64,000 bases of DNA from an uncultured delta proteobacterium (GTDB lineage: Bacteria; Desulfobacterota; Zymogenia; Zymogenales; Zymogenaceae). The stretch is taken from positions 352,001 through 416,000 of the forward strand of contig CAVTLK010000001.1 in assembly GCA_963735595.1 (NCBI GenBank), given 5' to 3'. Every line of letters starts with the position of its first letter. Position 1 is the stretch's first letter. Below the pieces are notes generated by a model. That model did no database searches. It saw only the letters and a program-made list of their open reading frames with translations, and was not told where the DNA came from. Position numbers and translations under genes: made by a program. This document shows, one piece after another, positions 35,559-51,021 of the stretch.

Positions 35559-35813
35559 TTACCCTCCGGTTACCATGGGATATATTTCCACTACATCGCC
35601 GTCTTTGAGCGGATAGGGTATAATCAGTAACGATTCTACAGGCTGTTTGTTGACGAGCACCAATCCCACTTCCCCGCGATCGATAGGAAGCCCAAAGAGC
35701 ACATCCCGAATATCGGCGGCTTGAAACGACAGGGTGTGTCTTCCTTTCATGTATCGTCGAAAGGAACCGTACAGGTTCACCTTAACTCTCGGGGATGATG
35801 CGTCAGTTGTCAT
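35559..35813 (-). CDS. MoaD/ThiS-family sulfur carrier
   Basis: Ubiquitin-like pattern ending LKDGDVVEIYPMVTGG; abuts the AOR gene. Confidence 0.88.
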   Translation of the reverse strand: MTTDASSPRVKVNLYGSFRRYMKGRHTLSFQAADIRDVLFGLPIDRGEVGLVLVNKQPVESLLIIPYPLKDGDVVEIYPMVTGG

Positions 35814-35863
35814 ATATCCTTTTTCTGTTATTCTGCCGATCGATACGATAGCAACGACGTTTC

Positions 35864-37105
35864 TCAGTGTTGGGCCCTGAGGCTCTCGATGAACGCCTCG
35901 ACCCTCGTCCTGGTCTGCGCCTCGGAGAAGGACCGCTCATCGGTCATGTCGGCTTCGATAATTATCGTCGGTATATCGAGGTCCTTCTGGATTATACGCG
36001 CTATATCCAGCTGGCCCAGCGAATAGGGCTTACATGAACGGTTCGAATGCATAACAAATCCGTCGGCGGAGTATCGCTTTATGAGCGCTTTTATCTCCGA
36101 GACCATCTGCTCGATGTCGATATTAAGGTATACCTCGGTATAGGATCGAGACATCGTCTCGATTAGGTTATCCGGGTCAAGGCAGGCCCTGGCCCACGCG
36201 TTAGTATACGTATCTGCGACCAAACACGCCCCGTTAACAGCGAACAGCTCCGATAGGGGCCGGAGCGCGAACCAGACCGGAATATTGTCCCAGAGGAGGC
36301 GGTATTTCTCGTTATCGACGGCCGCGATCCCGTCGGTAATCCGCTTCCTGAGCTCGGCAAGTAGCCCTACGTAGAAATCGTTACACTGGGTTGTGCCCCG
36401 CAGCGTGACGATGGGTGCGATAAAGAAGAAGGCATCAAAACAGCTCATGGGAGACGGCCGATTCTCGCACGTCGAGAGGACTTCGTTCCAGAGACCGACT
36501 CCCTCAACGGAGAGACGGCCCACCTCTTTGAGGCGGTCGCGGTCCATCTTCTTGCCGCACTGTTCCTCCAAAAAACGGATATACTCCTCCATCTGGCTCG
36601 TCACGTAGCGATGTGCCGATTCGGTCTTATGCTGGTGGATGAAGGGAGTGTCGATAAGAAACATCGGAACATCAAAGTGCCGGGCCAGGATCTCGTACCA
36701 CTTGGTGACGGTTCCGCAGATGTTGTTGCACGCTATCACGAAGTCGGGCTTCGGAAGGCCGCCGGGAATCGGGCTCTTCTTAGTGACGGCGCTCCCGATA
36801 TCTCCCCGAAAGTATGAACACAGGTCGCGGGAATATCCCATATCTTCCGAAATCCCGCACATCTCCACGCTCATCTTCGACGCCCCCAGCATCGCCCCGT
36901 GGTTCTCCGGATAGATTGGAATGATATCCATGGCGTGCAACGGCTCCACCGGCCCCCCGGAGGTGATCCACGCAATCTTCTTATTCCCGCTTGCCTCGGC
37001 GACCTTGGATTCGGTATAATACGCCGTCATCAGGTCCCGCATCGTCCGGGCCGATTGAAATTTCTTTTTTTCTTTTTCCGGGTCTTTTATTTTTTCATCT
37101 GCCAC
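35864..37105 (-). CDS. 2-hydroxyacyl-CoA dehydratase / class I benzoyl-CoA reductase family subunit (BcrB/HgdA-like)
   Basis: YPENH, GYSRDLCSY, LPKPD...CNNIC..V.KW, HSNRSCKP, IEADM.D.R.FS. Confidence 0.88.
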   Translation of the reverse strand: MADEKIKDPEKEKKKFQSARTMRDLMTAYYTESKVAEASGNKKIAWITSGGPVEPLHAMDIIPIYPENHGAMLGASKMSVEMCGISEDMGYSRDLCSYFRGDIGSAVTKKSPIPGGLPKPDFVIACNNICGTVTKWYEILARHFDVPMFLIDTPFIHQHKTESAHRYVTSQMEEYIRFLEEQCGKKMDRDRLKEVGRLSVEGVGLWNEVLSTCENRPSPMSCFDAFFFIAPIVTLRGTTQCNDFYVGLLAELRKRITDGIAAVDNEKYRLLWDNIPVWFALRPLSELFAVNGACLVADTYTNAWARACLDPDNLIETMSRSYTEVYLNIDIEQMVSEIKALIKRYSADGFVMHSNRSCKPYSLGQLDIARIIQKDLDIPTIIIEADMTDERSFSEAQTRTRVEAFIESLRAQH

Positions 37106-38250
37106 GGCCGTCTCCTATCATCTCCATGAATGCATCGATACGTGTTTTTATCTGACCAAGTGAGGGATTGTCCATCTCCGTTTCGAGGAGCATATGGGGG
37201 ACCTTGAGCGAATCCACCGACTCCTTCAGGTAAGGGTAGTCAAAGGAATGGGGATCGCAGAATTTTATCATCAGGAATATAACCCCCTGCGCTCCACTGT
37301 CCTGCACCATCTTTTTGAGATAGGCTCCCCGATCGAACTGCGGATTATGTTTGGCCGCACAGATCGGCCGCCGTATGATTCGATCGGCGAGCGCTTCAAT
37401 CGGCTTTGTGCCCTTTTCATCCGCGTTAACGACAAAATAGCGTGAGCCGGTACACATATCGTCCCCGACGACGGTTCCTCCGGCCGATTCGATATAGTCA
37501 TATATTTCGTTAAAGACGCAGAGGTTGCCGGCGAGGAAAATCCTTGTCGGATGCCCTCCTCCCGCCGTATTATCGAGATCCGTCAGCAACGATTCCATGA
37601 GGAGGTTATGCTCCTCAACCGGCATAAACATAGCGGCCTGTACGCAGTCGTTGAGGGCTGAGGATGGCAGTATTGCGGGATTTTCCTTCTTGGCCTCGTA
37701 GAGCCGCGCGAGATTTCCCCTCATGCGGTTATAGAGTTTGATCGCCTCGACGAGCGAGTCGTCACCGATCGTTCGTCCGGTGAATGCCTCGATCTTCTTG
37801 ACAAATGACCCAAGCTCTTCAATCAGATAGGTTCGTGCGCTCTCGGTCTGGAGTTTAACGGGTAGGACGATGTCGGCGTGAAACGAATAGCCTGTATTGA
37901 TTCTCCAGATATCCGAAAGCCGCTGAATAGAATCACAGGTATGCGGGAAAACCGCCCCCTCCAGGAAATCGAGCTGGTTGGTCAGGGCCATGTCAAGGCC
38001 CGTTCTAACGAGTGAACATGAGTAGCTCTGGAGGTGAGAATCGGAACATACGACGCTCTTTTTGCTGACCTATGATGCGAAAGGGAATCCCCCCCCCCGC
38101 GTGGATGATCTCTTCGGGTGTGTAGGTGCAGAAATATCCGAATACCGGGCGCTTGTAGCGATCCTTGTATTTCCTCGCGGCACCGACGGGATCTTCTACG
38201 GTATTCTTCATGATAGCAAGCACTTCATCACGTGTCATCCGGTACCTCAT
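37095..38250 (-). CDS. 2-hydroxyacyl-CoA dehydratase / benzoyl-CoA reductase family subunit (BcrC/HgdB-like), one indel near 38060
   Basis: GYFCTYTPEEIIHA in the first frame continues as DSHLQSYSCSLVR, HTCDSIQR, DDMCTGSRY, KFCDPH.FD after a shift in an A run. Confidence 0.85.
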
Positions 38251-38253
38251 TTA

Positions 38254-39222
38254 TTAGGCATGCATAAGATATCTATTAATCGGGAGCGTTTTCAGTCTCA
38301 GGTTCCCGGACTCGTCGGGACCGACCTGGAAATGGCTCCCTCCCGTCTTTTTCGAGAGGATCCGGAGGATTTCCGGCGATTCCTTTTTACCTATGTAGAT
38401 TGAGTGAACCGCGATCCCGTCGGCATGAGCAAGCCTTATTTCCCGCGAGATTTCCCGGTCTCCCTCCGTCGGTCTTCCGTCGGTAATGAACACGACGTGT
38501 TTTATCCGGTCATAAACCGCCCTGAACTCCTTTATTGCGTCAAGGAGCGGTAGCTGGTAATTTGTAAAACCGCTGCATCGACATCGGGAAGCCATATCGC
38601 CGATCATCGCATAAGAACGATTGAAGAAGACTCTGCTTTTTAAAAACTTGGTTGACTGGTGGTTGAATTCAAGATACCCGATACGCATACGCCTCTTGCG
38701 CGCTATCCTGATAAGCCCGAGAATGAGCATCGAAGACCACTGCGCCCGGCTTCCGGTCATGGAGGAACTGATATCCCTGATTATGGCCAGCGCGCCTCCC
38801 TTGAGCTTACGCTTTCGCAGCATCGCCAACGGCATTTTTGGGTTGAGGTGGGCCAGCCATACCGCCGAATCGACCGGGTCCACGTCGTCAAACAGGGAAA
38901 AGTCCTCAAGATGCGACCAACTCCGTGGGGATCCGCCGTAATCCTTCATCAGGTCTTCGGTTTTTTGGACTATATTTCCTTCGATGACCTTGAGAATCGG
39001 GTAAACATCGGTGAGAGATTCCTTATTTACCTCTTCCTCTCCCCGATCGACGACCTCTTCCCCGGTCTTTTCTCTGGTCGGCAGCAAGTCCTTAACAATG
39101 AACGACTTGTCCGGGAACTGGTCGAAATCCTTATCGGAGAGTTCCGTGGGCTCCGCCTGACCCTCGTTTATCTCCTGGGGCTGGGCGTCTTCTTCACGCT
39201 CCTGGAATTCGGGCGGATTTAG
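38254..39222 (-). CDS. VWA (MIDAS) domain with acidic linker; frame is open up to the A10 run of the upstream ATPase gene
   Basis: DISSSM (DxSxS), GFTNY, FITDG; no ATG in the first ~90 codons of the frame. Confidence 0.8.
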   Translation of the reverse strand, partial: LNPPEFQEREEDAQPQEINEGQAEPTELSDKDFDQFPDKSFIVKDLLPTREKTGEEVVDRGEEEVNKESLTDVYPILKVIEGNIVQKTEDLMKDYGGSPRSWSHLEDFSLFDDVDPVDSAVWLAHLNPKMPLAMLRKRKLKGGALAIIRDISSSMTGSRAQWSSMLILGLIRIARKRRMRIGYLEFNHQSTKFLKSRVFFNRSYAMIGDMASRCRCSGFTNYQLPLLDAIKEFRAVYDRIKHVVFITDGRPTEGDREISREIRLAHADGIAVHSIYIGKKESPEILRILSKKTGGSHFQVGPDESGNLRLKTLPINRYLMHA

Positions 39223-40163
39223 TTTTTTTTTTCGACGAGGTCCACGAGCATTTCATCGAGCCGCTGGGCGACTTCCGGCGGAACACGGAAGGTCATAAGA
39301 TATTTCATGACGGAGAGGTCCTTGGGTAGGACCTCGGTGCGACCCTCAAGGATCGCCTTTGCCTTGAGAATGCTGATCGCCTTAACCAGGAAGGTCCTGT
39401 CGGTTAATAGCGAGTTCGTTTCGTTGAGATGGAAGTTCGTTATCAAGTGTTCGAGAAGCGCGATAAGCTGCTGTTTGACCTTAGCTCCGACCTTTATATC
39501 GAGTAAATATCCTGCCGGACGCTGGAAAACGGCATCCTCAAATCCCTTTACCGTATCCTTATCAAAGACGTGCTCGGTATAGTAATCCATGACCGAGATC
39601 GCTTCTTCCCAGTTTCCCCGGTTGATAAGCCCGGACGACCTGAGCTGAATCGTGAACCGGTCAAGGTTCGCCAGGTCCAGCGGCTCGTTATAGTAGTCAT
39701 CCTGGGTCGGGTTGCTGGTGGCGATGGCCGTTAACAACGGGAGTTTTGTTCCCTTATATTCCCGTTCGTTGAGGAGCCGCAACATGATATTGAGGGCTTC
39801 ACCGGGCGCGCGGGTAATATCATCAAGGACTACCAGTTGCGCCGTAAGTATGCCGCCGGGGATGAGTTTCTGGCTGATGAGTTCACCTCCGCCGTTCCCC
39901 GACTGGGGTTCCCTGCAGATGATATAGTCACCGATCAGCTCTGAGAGTCTCGTATCCCGATGGAACTGATAGAAATAGAAATTGAGGTTTGCCGCCTTGG
40001 CGGTGAGCTCGGCCAACATCGTCTTCGCCGTTCCCGGGGCGCCCTCGATATAGACGTGCTCCCTGGCAATCAGCGCCAGCAAAAGCCCTTCCTTGATATC
40101 GTTATGGCCAATAACGTATCGGTCCAGAATTTCCTTGATCTTTACGGCCGTATTGAGCATCAC
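39219..40163 (-). CDS. MoxR/RavA-like AAA+ ATPase
   Basis: EHVYIEGAPGTAKT (Walker A), LVVLDD (Walker B variant), LN..L.LLNER, ATSN, LDRF. Confidence 0.88.
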   Translation of the reverse strand: MMLNTAVKIKEILDRYVIGHNDIKEGLLLALIAREHVYIEGAPGTAKTMLAELTAKAANLNFYFYQFHRDTRLSELIGDYIICREPQSGNGGGELISQKLIPGGILTAQLVVLDDITRAPGEALNIMLRLLNEREYKGTKLPLLTAIATSNPTQDDYYNEPLDLANLDRFTIQLRSSGLINRGNWEEAISVMDYYTEHVFDKDTVKGFEDAVFQRPAGYLLDIKVGAKVKQQLIALLEHLITNFHLNETNSLLTDRTFLVKAISILKAKAILEGRTEVLPKDLSVMKYLMTFRVPPEVAQRLDEMLVDLVEKKN

Positions 40164-40191: not shown

Positions 40192-40220
40192 AGTATACCA
40201 AATGAGACTACGTTTATCAA
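40192..40220 (-). promoter_or_regulatory. Candidate sigma70 promoter for the AAA/VWA-dehydratase genes
   Basis: TTGATA (40220-40215), 17 nt, TGG-TATACT (40197-40192). Confidence 0.55.
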
Positions 40221-40227
40221 GTCAAAT

Positions 40228-41325
40228 CTAAAGCTCCGAACAATCCATGTTGAAGGCCTCGGCCACGGCTCGATAGGTTACCTTCTTGTTGAGTATATTG
40301 ACGCCCTTCTTGAGGGCCGGGTCCTCACTGATCGCCCTGTCCAAACCCTTATCTGCGAGGGCAAGGGCATACGACAACGTTGAATTGGTCAACGCAAAGG
40401 TCGAGGTCCGCGGCACCGCCCCCGGCATATTCGCCACCGCGTAGTGAACAACGCCGTCGACTATGTACGTAGGATCTTTATGCGTGGTGGGCTTGGTGGT
40501 TTCGGCGCATCCGCCCTGATCCACCGAGATATCGACGATGGCCGATCCCTTCTTCATCCTCTTGACCAGGTCTCTCGTTATGAGCTTTGACGCCTTCGCG
40601 CCGGGTATGAGTATCGTCCCTACCACAAGATCGGAAGATATGACTTCTTCCTCGATATTGGCCCTGTTGGACATGACCGTTACCACATGCCCGCCCATGA
40701 CGTCATGGATATATCTGAGCTTTGCCGGATTGATATCGAGGATACTTACCCTGGCCCCCATCCCCACCGCCACGAAACAGGCGTTGGAGCCGGCAATCCC
40801 CGCTCCGAGAATCGTAACTTTTGCCGGCGGTACCCCGGAAACCCCTGAAAGGAGGATCCCTTTGCCTCCGCCGATCGACTCCAGGCAGCGCGCCCCCATC
40901 TGTATGGAGAGCCTCCCGGCAACTTCGCTCATCGGGGCCAAGAGCGGCAGCGACCCATCCGGCAGCTGGATCGTCTCATACGCGATCGCCTTGACGTTTG
41001 TGGCGAGCAGTTTCTTGGTCAGATCTATGTCAGCCGCCAGGTGAAGGTACGTAAATAGTATGTGGTCTTTTATCAGGCCGAACTCGGGACCGAGCGGCTC
41101 CTTGACCTTGATGATCATCTCCGCCTGATCCCAGACGTCTTCCTTAGTGGGAAGGATCGTGGCGCCCATCGATGTGTATTCCTCATCCGACAGACCGCTA
41201 CCGATACCGGCCCCCCTTTCCACCAACACCGAATGACCGTGTCCTACCAGCGCCGATACTCCCGCCGGCGTGAGGGCAACGCGGTTCTCTTCGGCCTTGA
41301 TTTCTTTTGGAACCCCTATTTTCAT
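40228..41325 (-). CDS. ald: Alanine dehydrogenase
   Basis: IGVPKEIK..ENRVALTP, KVKEP, FTYLHLA, LPLLAPMSEVAGR, VDQGGC.ET, HYAVANMPGAVPRTST. Confidence 0.96.
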   Translation of the reverse strand: MKIGVPKEIKAEENRVALTPAGVSALVGHGHSVLVERGAGIGSGLSDEEYTSMGATILPTKEDVWDQAEMIIKVKEPLGPEFGLIKDHILFTYLHLAADIDLTKKLLATNVKAIAYETIQLPDGSLPLLAPMSEVAGRLSIQMGARCLESIGGGKGILLSGVSGVPPAKVTILGAGIAGSNACFVAVGMGARVSILDINPAKLRYIHDVMGGHVVTVMSNRANIEEEVISSDLVVGTILIPGAKASKLITRDLVKRMKKGSAIVDISVDQGGCAETTKPTTHKDPTYIVDGVVHYAVANMPGAVPRTSTFALTNSTLSYALALADKGLDRAISEDPALKKGVNILNKKVTYRAVAEAFNMDCSEL

Positions 41326-41373
41326 GGTTTTAACCTCTCTTGAAGTACTTGTTTTATATCCTGGGTATATCGC

Positions 41374-42723
41374 TTAGTCGGTTACACCCGGCCTCCGGCG
41401 GCGCGGTACGCGTGCTGCCATTCTTTTTTCGTAGGCCGACCGCAGCCGAGGGGGTACAAGAAACGTATATATCAGACAAAACACAAAGACCCCCGCCATT
41501 ATATAGAGGACGGTAATGTCCTCTACGTATATCCCCGCCAGCAGGACCAGGAAAAAGACCACGGAGATAATGGGGATAACAAGACCGCCCGGAACCCGAT
41601 AGGACCTTGTGGCCCCGCGCATCGTGAATCGGAGCCGGATAACCGAGAGGGCCATCACTGTATAGATGATCACCTCGATGGCGGCGGCCACCAGGATCAG
41701 GCGCATATATTTCCCGGTAAGGTGGCAATAGATAGATATTAAGAACGCCAGTGTAAACGCAAAAAGGATGGCGAACCACGGTGTCGCGTAGCGGTCACTG
41801 ATCCGTGAGAATATCCTCGGCAATACATTATCCCGACCCATGGCGTATATGAACCGCGAAAAATTCAAAAAACCCGCATTGTAGGAGGTCAGCGACGCAA
41901 GGCAGCTCATGAAGACAAACGAGTAGATACCGACCTTCCCGAACAATGCGTTACCGACAATAATATGGGGGATTTTTGACACCGCGAGCGTTTCCTTGGG
42001 CACTACCGCGGTCATTCCCGTAATAAAGATCACGTACGAAAGACAGAGAAGCCCGATTGCGATCATCATTCCCTTCGGAATCATGCTGCTTTCAGTGACC
42101 TCTTCGGCCAGCGGCGTTACCCACTCGAATCCGACGTAAAGAAAGACGCCGACGGCCGCCGCCTGGAAAACGTTCGTAACTCCCCCCGTGTTAAACAGCT
42201 CCGGGGCTGAGACGCCTGATGTCGAAATAGCATATATACCGACGACTATCATAAAGGTGAGCATAGTGTATGTCATGATGTCTTCAGCCAGACCGGCGAG
42301 AACGACTCCCCTCAAATTTAGCAGTGCAATGAGTCCAAGGAAAACCACGACCCACGTAAAGGGAGGAATACCGGGGAGTACCGTGGCGATGACGCCGCTG
42401 AGGATATGCGTTTCCGGGCCGACCATAGCGATGGCGCAGCCCAGGTAAAAGGCCCCGATGGCAATAGCGGCCTTTTCCCCGAAGGCCCGCTCAATAAAAA
42501 GTCGAATCCCCGCCGCCGACGGGTACATCCCGTTGAGCTCCGAAAAGCACATGGAAGCCAGGATGCACATAATACCCGCGACAAGTATCGATATCCAGGC
42601 CGACTGGCCGGCGACGAGTATCGCGACCTTTACTCCGGCAGCGTAACACGAAGTCGCCATCGCCATGCCGGCGCTCGTGGCGATCACCGTCCTGAGCGTT
42701 ACGACCTTCTTCAGACCGGTCAT
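41374..42723 (-). CDS. APC-family amino acid/amine permease, copy 2
   Basis: About 12 transmembrane segments; FSEL..MYP.AAG, YVGFE...AEEV, SRFIYAMGRD..LP, TPW. Confidence 0.9.
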   Translation of the reverse strand: MTGLKKVVTLRTVIATSAGMAMATSCYAAGVKVAILVAGQSAWISILVAGIMCILASMCFSELNGMYPSAAGIRLFIERAFGEKAAIAIGAFYLGCAIAMVGPETHILSGVIATVLPGIPPFTWVVVFLGLIALLNLRGVVLAGLAEDIMTYTMLTFMIVVGIYAISTSGVSAPELFNTGGVTNVFQAAAVGVFLYVGFEWVTPLAEEVTESSMIPKGMMIAIGLLCLSYVIFITGMTAVVPKETLAVSKIPHIIVGNALFGKVGIYSFVFMSCLASLTSYNAGFLNFSRFIYAMGRDNVLPRIFSRISDRYATPWFAILFAFTLAFLISIYCHLTGKYMRLILVAAAIEVIIYTVMALSVIRLRFTMRGATRSYRVPGGLVIPIISVVFFLVLLAGIYVEDITVLYIMAGVFVFCLIYTFLVPPRLRSAYEKRMAARVPRRRRPGVTD

Positions 42724-42843
42724 ATCCCTTACCTCGCACTGGAATCCTTTCTCACAGACAGATATCTGATCTCACGGAACGCGCCCATCCACGCGGCGTG
42801 GGTGTGCGCGTTCCGTTCCGCAGTAGTTTCAGGGCCGTCTAGC

Positions 42844-43621
42844 CTACGTCTCCTTAATCCAGGCGTCTATTGTGAGCATGAACTTACCAAGGTCCTTGCC
42901 GTATTCAGGAGAGCCTTCCTGCGCCAGGTATCCCAGGACGATAGCCTGGACGAGGTCAACCTGGTTGGTAAGGACCTTTATCGCGTTGTCGACTCCCATG
43001 AATTGCATGTCGATAAACGGGCGCCGTCGCGTATAGAGTCCCCTGCCCGCCTTTGTCTTCCCGAACTTGATCCGAAGATAGGCGTACGGGCCGTCCGGCA
43101 GGCACGTCCACTGGATGACCCTGTCGGGCATCTTTTTGGTGAATTCGTTAAACTCCTCGTAACCCGCCTTGTTCATCTGGGACAGCCCGGAGCTGAGCAT
43201 ATAGAAGAGGAGCTTTACCTTGAGGGCCTTCTTCTCCGGGTCCTTCGGGAGCTTCGTCGGCAGCAGCAACGTCAGACCCAGCAGTAGCGGGCACGACCTT
43301 CAGCAATAGGCCGATTTTCGTCAGCCCCTTGATTTTAGGGACGGCCGCTTTACCCGCGAAGAAGGCATTGAGCTGCCTGGCGCTCTTGAAGATGAAGGCG
43401 AGATCAGGATTCTCGGCACGCTCGAAAGACGTTTTGGGAATTCCATCTTCGAATTTCAACTGAGTGACGAGATCGTCGTTTCCTTTCACCTCGAACTGGA
43501 CAATCTTATTGAAACCACGGTACTTTTCGCGCGTCTTCGGGTCGTCTTCGATCAAGACTTTAACGAGCGGCACCGCGGCCCGAAGCATGATCCTTGCCAG
43601 GATATAGTCTTTGTCGGGCAT
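42844..43621 (-). CDS. Probable tandem SCP2-like (lipid-binding fold) protein, one indel near 43290
   Basis: Two segments fit the SCP2 pattern (IVQFEV...LKFEDG...PDLAFIF and VIQW...YLRIKFGK...VDLVQAI..G.L..EG); removing one C from GTGCCCG joins the frames. Confidence 0.6.
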
Positions 43622-43636
43622 AATGCCTCCTTTTGT

Positions 43637-44656
43637 TTATAGCTCGTCCTGCCAGTCTTCGTCTTCCTCGAATTCCTTCCCCATGACTTCCCGCACCGTT
43701 TCGATGATGCCGTCTGAATCAAGCTTGTAGTGGTGGTACAGGTCCTCGGGATATCCGACCGGCGAGAACTCGTCGGGTACCCCTACACGCTTAAAGGCGC
43801 ACCCCTTTCCAAGGTCCGCGATGACCTCGGCCACCGCGCTGCCGAGCCCCCCGACGATGCTGTGATCCTCGAACGTGATGATCCGTCTGGTATCCATGAC
43901 CGCCTTTTCGATCGCTTCCCGGTCAATCGGCTTGATCGTGTGCATGTTGAGCACCCGCACCGAAAGACCGTCGTTCTTCTTGAGAAAGTCGGCGGCATCG
44001 ACGGCCGCCACCAGCGGCGTGCCGCACGCGATTACGGTAACGTCCGTGCCGGGCCGCATCTCGTGCGCCTTTCCGATAGTGAAATCGAACTTGTCGTCCT
44101 TATAGACCCGGGGCTCAAAGCCGCGGCCTATCCGAATATATACCGGGCCCTTCCAATCGACGCACGCAGTAACCGCCTTGGCGGTTTCGAAACCGTCGGC
44201 CGGGGCGATAACGGTCATGTTGGCAAACGACCGGAGAATCGCCAGGTCCTCGGTACAGTGATGCGTTGTGCCGGCCTGTCCGAACGAAATACCTGAGTGG
44301 GTTGCGATTATCTTGCAGTTCAGCTTCTGGTAGCAGATATCGGTCCGCACCTGTTCACCGGCCCGCATCGCCACGAAAACCGCAAACGTAGAGATGAAGG
44401 GCATAAATCCCGCGAGCGCCAGGCCCGCCCCGATCCCGAACATATCCTGCTCGGCAATTCCAACGTTGAAAAACCGGTCCGGGTATTTTTCTCCGAATCT
44501 TCCAATTTTAGTGGACTTCGCGAGATCCGCGCTCAGCGCAACGATTTCGGGACGCTGGTCACCGAGCTGGGTCAACACATCGCCGTAGATCTCGGCTGCC
44601 GTCATCTTATCGGCATCATAGACCGTATATGTCAAGCCTCCAACTTGCTCTGCCAT
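43637..44656 (-). CDS. Split transketolase, C-terminal (pyrimidine-binding plus C-terminal domain) subunit
   Basis: SADLAKS, RFFNVGIAEQ, R..EQVR, GPVYIR, NMHTIKPID, EDHS..GGLGSAVAE. Confidence 0.92.
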   Translation of the reverse strand: MAEQVGGLTYTVYDADKMTAAEIYGDVLTQLGDQRPEIVALSADLAKSTKIGRFGEKYPDRFFNVGIAEQDMFGIGAGLALAGFMPFISTFAVFVAMRAGEQVRTDICYQKLNCKIIATHSGISFGQAGTTHHCTEDLAILRSFANMTVIAPADGFETAKAVTACVDWKGPVYIRIGRGFEPRVYKDDKFDFTIGKAHEMRPGTDVTVIACGTPLVAAVDAADFLKKNDGLSVRVLNMHTIKPIDREAIEKAVMDTRRIITFEDHSIVGGLGSAVAEVIADLGKGCAFKRVGVPDEFSPVGYPEDLYHHYKLDSDGIIETVREVMGKEFEEDEDWQDEL

Positions 44657-44666
44657 GGCTTACCTC

Positions 44667-45509
44667 CTACTTTTTGGCGTACATCTTATCGATGGACTCA
44701 AGTGCCTTTTTCGTCTTGTCCGCGTCAAGCCCGCCGTAGTGCCAGCCGGCGACATCTTCCATGAAGTCGACCCCTTTGCCCTTGACGGTATGCGCAATGA
44801 TGACACACGGGCCTTTCTTATAGGCTATTGCCTCATCAATTGCCCCGCATAGCTTTACAAAGTCGTGGCCGTCCACATCGATGACCTTCCAACCAAACGC
44901 CTCCCACTTCTTTGCCAGCGGCTCGATGCCCATGACATCCTGGCACGCACCGTCGATACAGAACTTATTGTTATCGACGAATCCGACGAGATTCGAGAGT
45001 TTGAAATGGCTGGCGCACATCGCGGCTTCCCAAATCGTTCCCTCATGCTGTTCGCCGTCTCCCATGATGCAGTAGGTTAGCCAGTCTTTCTTCTTGAGCC
45101 TGGCCCCGAGGGCAAGCCCAACCGCGATCGGCAATCCGTGACCGAGCGAACCTGTGGAGGCGTCCACCCCCTTTACTTTCAGGCTGTCCAGGTGCATGCC
45201 GAAGGGAGAGCCGGTGTGGTTGAAATCCTTAAGGAGCTCCTTATCGAAATACCCCTTGTCGGCCAGAACCGGGGCATACCCGATCCCGCCGTGCCCTTTT
45301 GAGAGCACGACCCGATCTCGATCCGCCATGTCGGGGCGCTTCGGGTCGATGTTGAGGTATTTGTAATAGAGACTCACCAGAATTTCTACCTGGGACAGGG
45401 CTCCTCCGGCATGCCCGCCGCCGGACCAGATCAGCGTCTGGATTATGTCCTTTCTGATCTGCCAGGCCTTTTCCGTTAGTTTCTTCAATTCGGTGTCGGA
45501 AAGTGCCAT
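44667..45509 (-). CDS. Split transketolase, N-terminal ThDP-binding subunit
   Basis: GH.GG.LS, DRVVLSKGH, STGSLGHGL, GDGE..EG.IWEA...DNN, DGHD, TVKGKGV. Confidence 0.93.
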   Translation of the reverse strand: MALSDTELKKLTEKAWQIRKDIIQTLIWSGGGHAGGALSQVEILVSLYYKYLNIDPKRPDMADRDRVVLSKGHGGIGYAPVLADKGYFDKELLKDFNHTGSPFGMHLDSLKVKGVDASTGSLGHGLPIAVGLALGARLKKKDWLTYCIMGDGEQHEGTIWEAAMCASHFKLSNLVGFVDNNKFCIDGACQDVMGIEPLAKKWEAFGWKVIDVDGHDFVKLCGAIDEAIAYKKGPCVIIAHTVKGKGVDFMEDVAGWHYGGLDADKTKKALESIDKMYAKK

Positions 45510-45671
45510 AATGCTACCTCCAAGAATTGTTAGTACTCTGGATTACTCGTGCTATATCTCTTTTGCGGTTCGGCTTGCCGGCCTCCCGATCGGACACCGC
45601 CGATCCAATCACGGCATACGCCCAAACAAAATCCGGGAACAATAACCGCCGGTTCATACCCGTTCGTACCC

Positions 45672-47081
45672 TCAATCGCCCTCCGGCGCCACCCCTCCTT
45701 CTCTTCTGCGACGTCTGGGCACCCGTTCGTCCGCTATCTTCTTGTATCTCGCTCGAAGCCGCGGCCATACCGTGAAGACGTAAAGCGAGTTGAGCACAAA
45801 CAGGCCGACGATGAAGAAGAGGCAAATACGCTGGTCCATCACATCCTCGGGTTTTACCGGCCCAAAGAGAATAAAGCCCGCCACAACGCTGTAGATTACG
45901 ATAACGATGATCGGTACCGCGATGCCTCCTTTTAATTTAAAACTTCTCTCCTTGTCCGGCTCCTTGTAGCGAAGGCGGATAACACACAGGGCCATCACCA
46001 CGTAGATCAGGCATTCGGTCGCGGCAATTATGAGAATCAGCGAGAGGACGAAATTAGTCATGAATCCGTATACCGTAACCGCGACGCAGTAGGCGAGGAT
46101 GACAATCATGGCGACCCAGGGGGTCGCATATTTCGGGTGGAGCTTGGCAAGAAAGCGGGGTAAAGACCAGTCACGCGCCATGGCATAGATAAATCGCGAC
46201 GAGGTCATGATGCCGGCATTGAGAGACGTCGTAGAGGCCAACAGCCCCATGATAATCATGAAGTAAAGCCCGAAATTACCTAACAGGAATTTGCCGTAGA
46301 ATACATGGGGAGCCGGGATACCATCGGGCGCGAGGACCGGGTTAAGCACCTCCCAGCCGAGGACGGACGTCATGGCGGTTGAAAAGATAGCGTAGGTAAT
46401 CCCCAGGAGGCCGAGGGCAATCATCATCCCCTTCGGAACCAGCTTTACGTCCGTCACCTCTTCCGATACGGTGATGACCCACTCGAAGGCAATGTAGGTT
46501 GATATACCGATAGCTACCGCCTGTATAAATCCGTCGAACGATCCGATGGCAAAGGGGTTGGTGATATGGAAATCGATCGTATAAAAGCCGTAGAGGGAAA
46601 CGAGGATAAGGCCGACAAACATAGTGTAGGAGAGGATATCCTGGGCCATTCCTGCTATCGTAATCCCCCTGAAGTTGAGATAGAGGAGGATCAGTATACA
46701 CGCCCCCGCCCATATAAACGGCGGGACTCCCGATACTCCCATGGATACGGCCTGGGAGAGTATATAGATCTCTGCGCCGACGATGGCAAGCTGTCCGAGG
46801 ACATACACTCCCGAAATAATAATGGCCGTTCGCTCGCCAAAGGCGCGCTCAATAAAGAGCTTGATACCCGCCGCCGTCGGGTACATTGAATTCAGCTCAC
46901 AAAAACACGACCCTGCCAAAACCGCCATGATACCGGACGTCAAGATTGCAATCCAGGCGGAATTACCCGTCAGATAGCTCGCCAGCTGAATAAACGAGAT
47001 ATATGTAACCGATGCCAGGGCCATTCCGGCCCCCGTGGAGATTACCGTTCGAAGTCCGATCGCGCGTCTGAGCTGGGTCAT
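45672..47081 (-). CDS. APC-family amino acid/amine permease, copy 1 (start set at the ATG at 47081, which has a GGAGG ribosome-binding site)
   Basis: Same motifs as copy 2: FCEL..MYP.AAG, YIAFEW...SEEV, SRFIYAMARD..LP, TPW. Confidence 0.9.
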   Translation of the reverse strand: MTQLRRAIGLRTVISTGAGMALASVTYISFIQLASYLTGNSAWIAILTSGIMAVLAGSCFCELNSMYPTAAGIKLFIERAFGERTAIIISGVYVLGQLAIVGAEIYILSQAVSMGVSGVPPFIWAGACILILLYLNFRGITIAGMAQDILSYTMFVGLILVSLYGFYTIDFHITNPFAIGSFDGFIQAVAIGISTYIAFEWVITVSEEVTDVKLVPKGMMIALGLLGITYAIFSTAMTSVLGWEVLNPVLAPDGIPAPHVFYGKFLLGNFGLYFMIIMGLLASTTSLNAGIMTSSRFIYAMARDWSLPRFLAKLHPKYATPWVAMIVILAYCVAVTVYGFMTNFVLSLILIIAATECLIYVVMALCVIRLRYKEPDKERSFKLKGGIAVPIIVIVIYSVVAGFILFGPVKPEDVMDQRICLFFIVGLFVLNSLYVFTVWPRLRARYKKIADERVPRRRRREGGVAPEGD

Positions 47082-47150
47082 GAATCGTACCTCCTGCGTT
47101 TTCTGATCACGGTGATAAATATCATTGAAGATACGTATCACACGGCTATT

Positions 47151-48506
47151 CTATGTAGCTTTTCCGGACCTTCTCCGGCGTTTCCCTGCACCCGGTACAT
47201 CGTCTCCCGGCACACTGCCGGGACCATTGTTTTCCTCCTGTTTTGTGATTTCCGCGAGCGACCGGTCGAACGCCTCCAGCACAAAATCGACCTCCTGCTC
47301 GGTAATCACAAGGGTCGGCATAATACGAATGATCCGCGGATTATTGAAGGTATAGATCGATATAACGCCGTTTTGTTTGAGCTGGTAGGCCATACGGGGG
47401 CCGATACTGTCCTCGGGAAACTCCATGCCGAGCATCAATCCCCTGCCCCGGACGTCCAGCACGAGGCTCGGGTACTTATCCTTCAGCGTGGAGAGGCCCT
47501 TTTTGAACCGATCTCCCATGCGGGCCGCGTGTCCCGGCAGGTCGTTCTTCTCAATATACTCAATCGTCGCCAATGCCACGAGGCATGCCAGCGACGTCCC
47601 TCCGAAGGAATTGATGATAATGAAGGGGTGCGTCATGAGAAATTCAGCGATTTCCTCGGTAAAAACCGCACACGACAGGGGATACAATCCGCCCGATAGC
47701 GATTTTGCCAGGACCATAATGTCGGGCGCAACCCCCGAGTATTCGGCGCAAAACATCTTACCGGTGCGGCCGAATCCGGTCTGGACCTCGTCAAAGACCA
47801 GGAGAATCTCATTTTCCGTACAGAGCTCTCTCAATTGACGCAGATACCGATCGTCGGCGGGAATGATACCCCCCTCCCCCTGGATGGGCTCCAGCAGCAC
47901 CGCCGCCGTTTCTTCGGTAATCGCCTCTTCTACCGCCCCGATATCGTTGTATCGGACGTGCCGGTAACCGGGCGTCAGCGGGGCAAAGGGCTTTTTATAC
48001 ACGTCCCGTCCGGTGGCCGGAAGGGCAAAACCGGTAACCCCGTGGTAACCGTTTTCCATGCAGATGATCTCGGTCTTATCGGTATGTCCGCGCGCGAGCT
48101 TTACGGCCACCTCAATGGCCTCTCCGCCGCCGCAGCAAAACAGCGAGTATTTCAGATCCCCGGGAGTGATCTGGGCGAGCTTTTTTGCCAGAAGCCCCCG
48201 TTCCCTCACGATCGATATCCAGCCGCCCATGTCGTAGGTATCCAGCGCCTTCTTGAGGCCTTCAACGATCTCCGTATTATGCCTGCCGACGTTGAATATC
48301 CCCGCCCCGGTGACGCAATCGATATATTTTTGCCCCGAGATATCCCAGACCGACGCGCCCTCCCGCCTCCCCTCAATAATGTCGAGGCTGGCATTTTTAA
48401 ACATCCGCAGCGCGAAGGGATTTACGTACTGCCGGTAGTTCTCCTCGGTCTCCTTTCTGATTTCATCCACGTTAGTCTGAGAGAGGATGTCGTCGATTAT
48501 TGACAT
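47151..48506 (-). CDS. Class III PLP-dependent aminotransferase, copy 2
   Basis: YIDC, GGEAIE.A.KLAR, YHG.T, EPIQGEGG, DEVQTGFGRTG, PDIM.LAKSLSGG (PLP lysine). Confidence 0.93.
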   Translation of the reverse strand: MSIIDDILSQTNVDEIRKETEENYRQYVNPFALRMFKNASLDIIEGRREGASVWDISGQKYIDCVTGAGIFNVGRHNTEIVEGLKKALDTYDMGGWISIVRERGLLAKKLAQITPGDLKYSLFCCGGGEAIEVAVKLARGHTDKTEIICMENGYHGVTGFALPATGRDVYKKPFAPLTPGYRHVRYNDIGAVEEAITEETAAVLLEPIQGEGGIIPADDRYLRQLRELCTENEILLVFDEVQTGFGRTGKMFCAEYSGVAPDIMVLAKSLSGGLYPLSCAVFTEEIAEFLMTHPFIIINSFGGTSLACLVALATIEYIEKNDLPGHAARMGDRFKKGLSTLKDKYPSLVLDVRGRGLMLGMEFPEDSIGPRMAYQLKQNGVISIYTFNNPRIIRIMPTLVITEQEVDFVLEAFDRSLAEITKQEENNGPGSVPGDDVPGAGKRRRRSGKAT

Positions 48507-48507
48507 A

Positions 48508-48867
48508 TCAGACCTCGGGCCAGATAACGGCCGATATGACGTCGATGCGCATGACATCCTCCTGGGTCCCCTTGACCTTGATCTCGCCCCTCAGGTACTT
48601 CTGGGTGGGATTTATATCTCCCCAGAACATGTCGCACATCGTTTCGCTGTCCGTCTCCACGATGATATCGGGCGTTCCGTCCGACCCCTTGTCGTTCTTC
48701 ACGATCTCACCTTCTACCACCTTCATGGTAAAGGAATCACCCGTGTCGACGGCCTTGAAATGGAGCAGCTTAGTCCAGTCTCGCTGCATTTTGCGCAGGC
48801 GCTTATTGGTGTTGCACTGCTCCGTGAAATCGGCCAAGGCTTCCCATATCTCGTCAGCGGTCGCCAT
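48508..48867 (-). CDS. SCP2 sterol/lipid-binding domain protein
   Basis: PDIIVETDSET..DMFWGDINPTQKYLRGEIKVKG, the SCP2 C-terminal signature. Confidence 0.85.
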   Translation of the reverse strand: MATADEIWEALADFTEQCNTNKRLRKMQRDWTKLLHFKAVDTGDSFTMKVVEGEIVKNDKGSDGTPDIIVETDSETMCDMFWGDINPTQKYLRGEIKVKGTQEDVMRIDVISAVIWPEV

Positions 48868-48885
48868 ACAAGAACCTCCTGTCTA

Positions 48886-50165
48886 TTAGTACTTTTCTAT
48901 TCCGCCCTGTTTCATTATCTCGACCATCGATTTATCGAGGGCATCTAAGACAAAGTCAACCTCCTCGGGCGTGATCACCAGCGACGGCATTATCCTCATC
49001 ACCGAGGGCTCGTTGCCGGTATAGATAGCCATAACACCATGCTGCGCCAGCTGGTAGCTCATCCGCGGACCGATGCTGTCGTTGGTGTACTGTAATCCCA
49101 TCATAAGGCCTTTACGCCTCACCTCCGTGAGAAGCTCGGGGTATTTCTTGATCAGCTCATCGAAACCTTTTTGGAAGCGCTCTCCCATCTTTGCCGCATG
49201 CTCGGGGAGCTTGTTTTTTATGAGATAGTCAATAACCGCCAGCCCGACTATACAGCCGATATCCGATCCGCCGAAGGTAGACAGATGGGTAAAGGCGTGC
49301 GTCATGACGAAATCGCCCAACTCCTCCCGGTAGATTGTCGCAGAGATCGGATAGAGCGCCCCCCCAGTGATTTGGCGACGGTAATGATATCCGGAACGAC
49401 GCCGGAATGCTCGCAGCAAAACATCTTTCCCGTCCGCCCGAATCCGGTTTGAATCTCGTCGAAGATAAGCATCACATCATGGTCGTCGCAGAGCTTTCTC
49501 ATGCCTTTTACGTAATCGTCTGTTGCAAGGTGAATACCCCCCTCCCCCTGCACAAGCTCGATGATAATCGCCGCCGTATCCTCGGTGATCGCCTCTTCCA
49601 GCGCCGAGAGGTTATTATACGGGACATGTTTATACCCCGGCACCATCGGGCCGAAGGGCTTCCGGTATTCATCCCGGCCGATCGCCGCCAGTGAAAATCC
49701 CGTATGTCCGTGGTAGGCCTTGATCGTCGAGATTATCTCGTTTTTCATGGTATAGCCGCGGGCGAGTTTTATGGCAAAATCATTGGCCTCCCCGCCGCCC
49801 GACCCGTACATGACATACTGGAGGTCGCCGGGCGTGATCTCGGCGAGACGCTTGGCCAGGTCGGCCTTGGGCTTGCTGCAGAGCAGAAAGACGCCGAGAT
49901 CATAGTCGTCCAGCGCCTTTTTCAGGGCATCGATAATCTCGGGGTTTCTCCTGCCGACGTTAAATGATCCCGCGGACGTGATGCAATCGATGTACTTCTT
50001 CCCGGTAATGTCCCAGACGGCCGCTCCCTCGCGCTTCCCCTCTATGATATCCAACCCGGCGTTTTTCAATACCCGTGCCTTCTGCGGATTGACGTATCGC
50101 GAGAAGTCAGCCAGCGCTTGTTTCTTTATTTCCTCCAGCTTTTCCTTGGAATCCTTACCGCCCAT
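48886..50165 (-). CDS. Class III PLP-dependent aminotransferase, copy 1, one indel in a G7 run near 49360
   Basis: DEIQTGFGRTG...PDIITVAKSLGG continues as ALYPISA...STFGG...PSLVIT if one G is added. Confidence 0.9.
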
Positions 50166-50296
50166 GTTTTTCTCCGTACTAGATCCTTTCAAAATAGTGT
50201 GCTATATGTCTATGAAAATATCTATTTATCACGAGACCGGCACGTATCTATTGCATCAACCTCGCTCTTTCGCTCAATATCTCGCGCCAAAACGCC

Positions 50297-50956
50297 CTAT
50301 TTCGGTGATCGTGCCATGACTCCTCTCAGCAGTATTTCCAGCTGAGAGGCAACCAGCGCTTCCAGGTTCAGATTAAAGCCCTTCAGATACCCCATGAGAT
50401 CAAGGATGAGTATCCCCTCTAATCCCGCCCAGAGATTAAAGCTGGCCTCTATGCTGTTAAGGTCGGATGAAAAATCTCCGGCGGACATCCCATCTGCCAC
50501 AACGCCTTCGATGATAGTAACGGCCTGGGTCGTTAAATCTCTGAGCCGTTCTCTGAGATGCTCCGATTGACCCCGCTTGGTGAAACCAAGATCATGAAAA
50601 GTGAGCATCTCGAAATATTCGGTGTAGTCGGTATAGAAGGTAACGTACTGGCGGGCGACGGCCCGTATGCGGTCTTGCGGCGTGCCGTCTATCAGGGCTG
50701 CCTTTTTAATGAGGCCGATAACTACCATGAAGGCCTCTTCGCAGACTTTCTCGTAGATCTCGTCTTTTCCGGAGAAATAGACGTAGATCGCCCCGGTGGA
50801 AAGCTCCGCGCCAAGGGCTACATCCCGCATCGTGGCGCCGAGGTAGCCCTTTTCGAGAAATAGTTTGCGCGCGGAATTCAGGATGCGCTCTACACGCTCC
50901 TGCTTTTCGACCTCAATCCGTTGAGCGATGACGCTTTCCATATGCAGGACACTCAA
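50297..50956 (-). CDS. TetR/AcrR-family transcriptional regulator
   Basis: IL.SA..LF.EKGY...TMRDVA..AELSTGAIYVYFSGKDEI helix-turn-helix. Confidence 0.93.
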   Translation of the reverse strand: MSVLHMESVIAQRIEVEKQERVERILNSARKLFLEKGYLGATMRDVALGAELSTGAIYVYFSGKDEIYEKVCEEAFMVVIGLIKKAALIDGTPQDRIRAVARQYVTFYTDYTEYFEMLTFHDLGFTKRGQSEHLRERLRDLTTQAVTIIEGVVADGMSAGDFSSDLNSIEASFNLWAGLEGILILDLMGYLKGFNLNLEALVASQLEILLRGVMARSPK

Positions 50957-50983: not shown

Positions 50984-51021
50984 AACATCGTTATGCTACA
51001 AAACAGCGTTACATAAGTCAA
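50984..51021 (-). promoter_or_regulatory. Sigma70 promoter of tetR with two AACGnTGTT boxes
   Basis: TTGACT (51021-51016), 17 nt, TAGCAT (50998-50993); TAACGCTGTT in the spacer and TAACGATGTT just after the -10. Confidence 0.65.

Follow-up and report, generated by a model that had tools for sequence, protein, structure and literature searches.

We analyzed a stretch of 64,000 nucleotides (the window) from an uncultured delta proteobacterium of the family Zymogenaceae (GCA_963735595.1, contig CAVTLK010000001.1, positions 352,001 to 416,000), in which a row of ten genes on the minus strand is likely to code for a catabolic route of uncultured anaerobes that has not been described so far and may act on sphingosine-like lipids. 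To judge from gene neighborhoods and trees, the complete row is confined to the window's family and most simply joins two separately conserved modules. In module 1, class III aminotransferases (AT1 and AT2) accompany a small SCP2 protein and an APC permease, while in module 2 (the TK module) the N and C subunits of a split transketolase (TK-N and TK-C) accompany a tandem SCP2 protein. Together they are a real, undescribed system whose function on lipid amino-alcohols is plausible and whose substrate is putative. The ten genes are as follows:

50297..50956, minus strand: TetR-family regulator (PF00440), likely start ATG 50941
48886..50165, minus strand: AT1, class III aminotransferase, PatA/PigE-like (PF00202 on both halves), 1-base frameshift near 49360
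48508..48867, minus strand: 119-aa SCP2 protein (PF02036, 26.4 bits)
47151..48506, minus strand: AT2, class III aminotransferase (PF00202), about 57% identical to AT1
45672..47081, minus strand: APC-superfamily permease 1 (PF13520), scoring under every specific NCBIfam cut-off
44667..45509, minus strand: TK-N, catalytic histidines and thiamine diphosphate (ThDP) motif retained
43637..44656, minus strand: TK-C, Asp469 and Arg358 equivalents replaced by Ala (alignment to the Carboxydothermus hydrogenoformans and human transketolases, and family counts)
42844..43621, minus strand: tandem SCP2-fold protein, 258 aa when intact, 1-base frameshift near 43290
41374..42723, minus strand: APC-superfamily permease 2, 43% identical to permease 1
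40228..41325, minus strand: alanine dehydrogenase (TIGR00518, 488.8 bits against a cut-off of 391.85)

Open reading frames and domain assignments gave the order tetR–AT1–SCP2–AT2–APC–TK-N–TK-C–tandem SCP2–APC–ald. The Pfam and NCBIfam assignments (TetR, Aminotran_3 twice, SCP2, AA_permease_2 twice, Transketolase_N, Transket_pyr with Transketolase_C, and alanine dehydrogenase) bear out an earlier interpretation made from the letters alone (the sequence-only reading), which had described ten co-directional genes in this order and no kinase, sugar isomerase or glycosidase among them; indeed, no kinase, isomerase or glycosidase gene lies within the ten-gene row. The halves of the tandem SCP2 protein gave no Pfam match in the window. 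As the row recurs in relatives at 60-99% protein identity, it is not a chance arrangement. Two of its genes are broken: AT1 lacks one base of a G run near 49360, and one base too many interrupts the tandem SCP2-like gene near 43290. Both frameshifts are likely assembly errors, the AT1 case being less certain. The tandem SCP2 gene is unbroken in relatives L024-L027, and the extra base at 43288 is absent from short-read contigs in all four runs. AT1 is unbroken in L025-L027, and the base missing at 49358 is present in the short-read contigs of one of the four runs, in a single contig of depth 2.5. Given these intact relatives and contigs, true pseudogenes are unlikely, though the nearest relative, L024, carries the same AT1 indel.

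The conservation of module 1 was followed with a profile of the small SCP2, which matched 211 stretches in a one-genome-per-species collection; the best 80 were retained as loci. The small SCP2 has a flanking aminotransferase in all 80 (in 79 of them immediately upstream) and is followed by an APC permease in 77. By their record titles, these loci belong to Desulfobacterota, Spirochaetota, Actinomycetota, Myxococcota, SAR324 and Bacillota. The small SCP2 appears unusually conserved across phyla (mean column identity of 74% in 32 rows), and its AlphaFold2 model, with a predicted local distance difference test (pLDDT) score of 93, matches SCP2 folds in Foldseek. AT2 orthologues are present in 9/9 family relatives and in 0/31 other genomes of the phylum in the same sample. 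Of the 80 genomes behind the locus set, 50 were tested for the TK module and for an 846-aa protein in which an N-terminal SCP2 is fused to E1 alpha and beta (the SCP2-E1 fusion). The 14 genomes with two aminotransferases outside the family held the TK module in 8 cases, the fusion in 7 and one or both in 12, and one further such genome (G068) held neither. As a phylum background, among 291 genomes outside the family, the small SCP2 was found in 8, the tandem SCP2 in 5 and both in 2. A weak search of longer proteins for an aminotransferase-SCP2 fusion gave three matches, one with an aminotransferase domain at 245 aa that was taken as a likely frameshift product, and so lent such a fusion no support.

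For module 2, a profile of the tandem SCP2 matched 286 metagenome stretches, of which 80, several of them near-duplicates, were retained as loci. TK-C lies directly upstream of the tandem SCP2 in 72/80, and 7 of the other 8 have less than 900 bp upstream. Where at least 1.3 kb is available upstream of TK-N (36 loci), a different class III aminotransferase stands there in 24, the window's module in 3, a zinc dehydrogenase in 1 and none of these in 8; a second tandem SCP2 gene usually accompanies that different aminotransferase, which among solved structures scores highest with FumI (317.7 bits, the runner-up having 170.4). In a TK-C tree of 39 rows (38 chosen loci and the window), the SCP2-linked subunits form one clade (99/95) across which the FumI-like context is scattered; loci arranged like the window group into a single clade (95/91). 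An intact relative of the tandem SCP2 was modelled at a pLDDT of 95, and the 13 Foldseek matches listed at E<=0.001 are SCP2 or alkylsulfatase-type proteins; on their AlphaFold2 models and Foldseek matches, the small and the tandem SCP2 both belong to the SCP2 fold. The association of aminotransferase, transketolase and SCP2 noted in the sequence-only reading thus recurs far beyond the window genome, with a FumI-like enzyme as the usual partner. When the proposed conserved neighborhood of aminotransferase, SCP2, aminotransferase, APC and transketolase was searched for, each module proved to recur widely, while the whole row was found in the window's family only, and the idea of the ten-gene row as a conserved unit was dropped as family-specific.

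The active site of the transketolase departs from that of its canonical relatives. TK-N and TK-C retain the ThDP motif and His26/66/100/261/473, as canonical enzymes do, but the equivalent of Asp469 is Ala in 94/94 aligned matches of at least 58% identity, and at the position of Arg358 the 90 aligned matches have Ala (72), Arg (11) or some other residue (7). In the window's TK-C both are Ala and the equivalents of Ser385, His461, His473 and Arg520 are retained (E. coli numbering), so that the canonical combination of Asp469 with a full phosphate site (Arg358, Ser385, His461, Arg520) is absent. Judged by these residues, the window's transketolase is not a canonical pentose-phosphate enzyme, and its pocket appears remodelled toward non-phosphorylated aliphatic ketols, as expected from the accessible part of PMC3657141, according to which the propanal/glycolaldehyde activity ratio of the E. 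coli enzyme rises from 0.04 to 0.20 with D469A, and enantioselectivity is inverted by D469Y but not by D469S/T. The positions R358, S385, D469 and R520 are named as widening the acceptor range in the available text of PMC7661550. Seven of the 10 genomes tested also carry a housekeeping transketolase of full length.

The aminotransferases of the window show a comparable remodelling. Their closest solved relatives are E. coli PatA/YgjG (PDB 4UOX; described in the accessible text of PMC4244111), which matches an intact AT1 relative with 291 bits, and Serratia PigE (PDB 4PPM). AT1 and AT2 are of class III by PF00202 and by a catalytic Lys and a Glu/Arg pair in 40/40 aligned rows, and, like PatA and PigE, they retain Lys300, Glu243, Arg426 and Phe327 and have no carboxylate-binding Arg at 183. 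Unlike these enzymes, they have an obligate SCP2 neighbor and score under the family cut-offs, AT2 reaching 397.7 of the 612 bits required for putrescine aminotransferases by NF008570 and 330.6 of the 658.65 required by TIGR03372. When the pocket residues are numbered as named for PatA in PMC4244111, the gate residue Phe91 is replaced by Ala (27) or Ser (13) and the distal-amine ligand Gln119 by Phe (29) or Trp (11) in all 40 rows, Leu419 by Gly (29) or Phe (11), and Lys183 by His or Val, so that PatA's combination of a narrow entrance and Gln119 is lost. Five pocket positions distinguish AT1 from AT2 without exception, and AT2 forms its own clade with approximate likelihood-ratio (SH-aLRT) support of 95-100. 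Both are only 24-26% identical to the FumI-like query, and FumI is not among the 60 listed of the 63 PDB matches of AT1. On these comparisons, the window's aminotransferases are neither members of the FumI group nor true PatA, and their pocket would suit a bulkier hydrophobic amine without a carboxylate, although an amine on a secondary carbon is not thereby implied.

The two modules are part of a wider set of enzymes that have an SCP2 of their own. The SCP2-E1 fusion stands directly before AT1 in four loci (L029, L034, L042 and L049), adjoins a third PatA-like aminotransferase in G007, and lies two genes before the FumI-like gene on contig C5 of the window genome. The fusion, or a close E1, is present in at least 8 of the 291 phylum genomes outside the family, where three candidates were scored per genome. 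A search for an E2 domain was negative in 4 of 5 family genomes, from which we infer that the fusion may act as a lyase. The window genome has 18 acyl-CoA dehydrogenase matches and only 5 Pfam SCP2 matches, which argues that the SCP2 genes are not randomly scattered. On C5 itself (G000:C5:474531-480336, locus L215), the fusion gene, frameshifted in the assembly, is followed by the tandem-SCP2 gene and the FumI-like aminotransferase gene, and no E2 domain was found in the genome. At L291:4440-10561 and G007:C20:12976-17771 (genomes G006 and G007), a full-length transketolase lies about 2 kb from a pair of tandem-SCP2 and FumI-like genes.

While the gene content, the conservation of the modules, the SCP2 folds and the altered pockets are established, the chemical steps of the route are all conjectural and could run as follows. 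The APC permeases would take up the amine, and AT1 and AT2, with the small SCP2 as carrier or subunit, would transfer its amino group to a 2-oxo acid; alanine dehydrogenase would free ammonia from alanine and regenerate pyruvate. The transketolase with its tandem SCP2 would cleave HOCH2-CO-CHOH-R into R-CHO and a C2 unit, the latter being passed to an aldose or released as glycolaldehyde, and an aldehyde oxidoreductase (AOR) and beta-oxidation would consume R-CHO. In general terms, we consider it about evenly balanced whether the row deaminates an imported lipophilic amino-alcohol and then, by ThDP-dependent cleavage, yields an aldehyde for oxidation. This order of steps is favored because the modules are tight, a FumI-like partner is usual, Asp469 and Arg358 are lost, a housekeeping transketolase is usually present and the SCP2-E1 fusion recurs beside aminotransferases. 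A sphingoid-type base would be the single most likely class of substrate, although this assignment is tentative and stands well short of an even chance. The sphinganine-like route proposed in the sequence-only reading is supported in part: the association of aminotransferase, transketolase and SCP2 and the remodelled pocket are in favor, while the window's aminotransferases are PatA-like with a Glu/Arg pair and not FumI-like. With similarly low confidence, one can extend the proposal to anaerobic necromass degraders that break down sphingoid bases without a kinase or a sphingosine 1-phosphate (S1P) lyase: SCP2-assisted aminotransferases would give the 2-keto form, a lipid-adapted transketolase would cleave 1-hydroxylated bases and the E2-independent SCP2-E1 fusion 1-deoxy bases, each to a fatty aldehyde, and the window's operon would be a version with its own importers and PatA-derived aminotransferases.

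Several results weigh against this reading and should be considered when referring to it. No APC permease is known to transport long-chain bases. PatA works on terminal amines, and the resulting aldehyde would not be a transketolase donor. Glu243 and Arg426 are retained in 40/40 rows, and this pair would seem to fit 2-oxoglutarate as acceptor at least as well as pyruvate, while alanine dehydrogenase lies near the small SCP2, and thus adjacent to module 1, in only 9/80 loci. Module 1 usually works without the TK module, as only 6 of 35 single-aminotransferase genomes hold the latter and one more holds a partial E1 fusion. A co-directional split transketolase follows module 1 in 5/80 loci, all of the window's family and in one clade (95/91), so that the joining of the modules is a single event, and in most loci the aminotransferase-SCP2-APC set occurs without the transketolase. 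Each of the 9 family relatives carries a FumI-like gene at another place in its genome, Arg358 is kept in the 11 matches given above, and a full-length transketolase was not found in three of the ten genomes tested (G000, G001 and G101). Asp469 is likewise absent from split transketolases that are encoded on plasmids next to ABC transporters, those for sugars among them, so that its loss is not specific to lipids. Natural sphinganine is 3R, opposite to the normal preference of transketolases, and the stereochemical caveat of the sequence-only reading therefore stands. In the available part of PMC13663882, (S) selectivity is reported almost throughout for ten wild-type split transketolases, including one with Leu at 469. 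It should also be noted that kin are not independent of one another, that metagenome-assembled genomes are incomplete and that near-duplicates occur among the metagenome loci.

The strongest competing explanation, which we consider possible though clearly short of even, is that two independent lipid-amine functions share one promoter: AT1 and AT2 with SCP2 and APC would act on a hydrophobic amine with a terminal amino group (long-chain, aryl-alkyl or an acylated polyamine), the aldehyde left after deamination would be oxidised directly, and the transketolase would be fed by the FumI-like enzyme on C5 or by a dehydrogenase. The TK module is absent from 29/35 single-aminotransferase genomes, PatA and PigE are the closest characterised relatives of AT1 and AT2, a pair of tandem-SCP2 and FumI-like genes is at hand in the window genome (C5:474531-476569), and four loci (L163, L204, L208 and L210) have a zinc dehydrogenase gene ahead of the transketolase and a gene of the NAD-dependent epimerase family behind the tandem SCP2. 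However, AT1 adjoins the SCP2-E1 fusion in four loci, and no FumI-like match (E<=1e-80) was found in G043, G046, G049 and G052, all of which have the two-aminotransferase and TK modules, G052 keeping a short remnant before TK-N.

A reading with a small substrate soluble in water, either an amine or an amino-polyol (a polyamine, serinol or an amino-alditol), in which the SCP2 proteins are structural subunits and the transketolase acts on short unphosphorylated ketoses, is improbable. Soluble amines are the typical cargo of APC permeases, a protein interface would account for the high conservation of the small SCP2, and split transketolases without Asp469 and without SCP2 lie near aminotransferases and ABC transporters (L298, L287). 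Yet each enzyme type in the network has an SCP2 of its own (the small SCP2, two tandem SCP2 families and the SCP2-E1 fusion), the aminotransferase pocket is wider and more hydrophobic than that of PatA, and scores fall short of the NCBIfam cut-offs for putrescine aminotransferases (397.7 of 612). A biosynthetic direction, in which the transketolase extends a fatty aldehyde by a C2 unit and an aminotransferase then gives a 2-amino-1,3-diol, and thus sphingoid-like bases independent of serine palmitoyltransferase, is more improbable still. Both reactions are reversible, engineered cascades yield (2S,3S)-aminodiols (by a title cited in PMC3657141), and many FumI-type cassettes have no adjoining transporter or regulator, but two importers, a likely repressor operator and AOR neighbors favor catabolism, and no acyl- or glycosyltransferase cluster is found among the neighbors (clusters in at least 4/80 loci). 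SCP2 folds can bind polycyclic lipids. The side chain of an amino-hopanoid, with the aminotransferases as the reverse of HpnO, which makes aminobacteriohopanetriol from ribosylhopane (PMC12583986), is nonetheless a very improbable substrate, since deamination would give an aldose-type aldehyde needing an isomerase, of which the cluster has none, and the loss of Asp469 would be unexpected for a 4-hydroxylated donor.

By analogy, the proposed breakdown of a lipophilic amino-alcohol would work like the FumI step of fumonisin catabolism (described in the accessible parts of PMC3136697, PMC9858248 and PMC8954241), followed by a transketolase. FumI, of the fum cluster of Sphingopyxis sp. MTA144 (PDB 6HBS), is a class III aminotransferase that converts a long-chain, sphinganine-like 2-amino-3-ol polyol to its 2-keto form, with pyruvate as the preferred acceptor, and the available text of PMC3136697 describes no transketolase or SCP2 with it. 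The aminotransferase that usually precedes window-type transketolases has FumI as its best solved match, whereas AT1 and AT2 are only about 25% identical to that FumI-like family. The sphingosine kinase/S1P lyase route (accessible part of PMC8954241) would also end in a fatty aldehyde and a C2 fragment, but it needs a kinase and a pyridoxal phosphate-dependent lyase, neither of which the window's cluster has, and releases phosphoethanolamine. The split transketolase of C. hydrogenoformans (PDB 6YAK/6YAJ; PMC7661550) and others (PMC13663882), as the available texts present them, share with the window's the two-gene architecture, the ThDP motif and the catalytic histidines; unlike them, the window's has lost Asp469 and, as in most of its family, Arg358, has a dedicated tandem SCP2 and falls in the clade of its own (99/95). 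None of the searched literature, which covered few subscription journals and no supplements, gave such a cluster, in agreement with the earlier statement that no described operon of this composition was known, or a transaminase/transketolase route for sphingoid bases. Similarly to the window, the sulfoquinovose transketolase pathway reportedly has a catabolic transketolase acting on a non-standard ketose, and taurine aminotransferase/alanine dehydrogenase loops couple these two enzymes. The sulfoquinovose and taurine systems differ from the window in needing a glycosidase and isomerases, acting on sulfonates and having no SCP2. The accessible part of a preprint on the class of Candidatus Zymogenaceae (bioRxiv 10.1101/2021.03.22.436540) characterizes it as fermentative anaerobes and mentions no transketolase, aminotransferase or lipid.

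The ten-gene row is likely one TetR-controlled catabolic operon, and two promoter-like features bear on its limits:

50984..51021, minus strand: sigma-70-like promoter with two palindromic boxes (-35 at 51021, -10 ending 50993; promoter scan)
40192..40220, minus strand: promoter-like site before the downstream MoxR gene (10/12 consensus matches, extended TG; consensus match only)

The two 9-bp boxes (51010-51002 and 50992-50984) overlap the promoter ahead of tetR, and promoter and boxes are aligned in 7/7 upstream regions compared. The double box is the sole perfect copy in the genome, with one more site at one mismatch and eight at two, and is likely the TetR operator. TetR is present in some family members and is not at this position in G007 and G008. 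A regulon common to the row and the SCP2-E1 operon was considered and rejected, as one box occurs in 3/7 upstream regions, of close kin only, and 167 such single boxes occur genome-wide. The site at 40192..40220 likely marks the boundary of the ten-gene unit, although the scan found 20 sites where 13.9 were expected. As this site follows ald, the MoxR-VWA-dehydratase-AOR genes beyond it may be a separate unit. Two metatranscriptome runs held short, low-depth contigs of relatives.

These downstream genes (33624-40163) encode MoxR, VWA, two 2-hydroxyacyl-CoA dehydratase subunits (one with an apparent frameshift near 38000), a MoaD-like protein and AOR, and are retained in the family loci L106, L108 and L112. 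Elsewhere, the TK module has flanking AOR genes in G074, G082 and G084 and a flanking alanine dehydrogenase gene in G044, G047 and L145. The two thus recur as neighbors in unrelated lineages, in support of the sequence-only reading. The narrower suggestion that the nearby AOR oxidises the aldehyde is not supported, as this gene lies past a separate promoter-like site and is linked to the row within the family only. As a proven downstream step it was rejected, since the AORs beside the TK module elsewhere are only 28-34% identical to it, and the dehydratase genes were likewise left out of the route, since their sole counterpart next to a TK module beyond the family, in L121, shares only about 30% identity with them, as ordinary paralogs would. 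At G000:C5:327214-330975, an apparent alcohol dehydrogenase, an SCP2 and an AOR lie in a row behind a TetR gene as a candidate fatty-aldehyde oxidation unit, and this AOR, with its SCP2 gene directly before it, would be a better candidate for that oxidation than the window's.

Further observations concern the neighbors of each module. A peptidase C69/secernin-like NTN hydrolase adjoins module 1 in 6/80 loci (L052, L072, L083, L084, L088 and L095) and could release the amine from an amide; its identification as a ceramidase was rejected, as the Atlas gave only C69/secernin clusters. A short AT2 remnant follows SCP2 at L040:2371-2691 and a FumI-like remnant precedes TK-N at L203:9551-9712, which suggests that partner genes are being lost or swapped. 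At L018:9467-11474 and L032:8530-10651, in relatives without TetR, three tandem V4R-domain genes lie between permease 1 and TK-N, and L018 has a fourth after permease 2. A FumI-like aminotransferase adjoins or lies near a different split transketolase without SCP2 in the actinobacterial loci L287 (9182-12358) and L288, and on the plasmid locus L298 aminotransferases surround a split transketolase. Finally, at G000:C5:35126-42792 (L214) a zinc dehydrogenase (sharing 66% identity with that ahead of the L204 TK module), a glycyl radical enzyme and a second dehydrogenase accompany a second atypical split transketolase without Asp469 and Arg358; the N-terminal extension of the glycyl radical enzyme is SCP2-like by eye and gave no Pfam SCP2 match.

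If the proposed breakdown of lipophilic amino-alcohols is true, the row would provide a testable gene set for the anaerobic recycling of long-chain amino-alcohol lipids and would parallel in nature the engineered transketolase/transaminase cascade, with a transketolase and aminotransferases that are adapted to long-chain substrates and have dedicated SCP2 partners. Even if the sphingoid assignment fails, two widespread and unannotated modules, aminotransferase-SCP2-APC and transketolase-tandem SCP2, have been defined.

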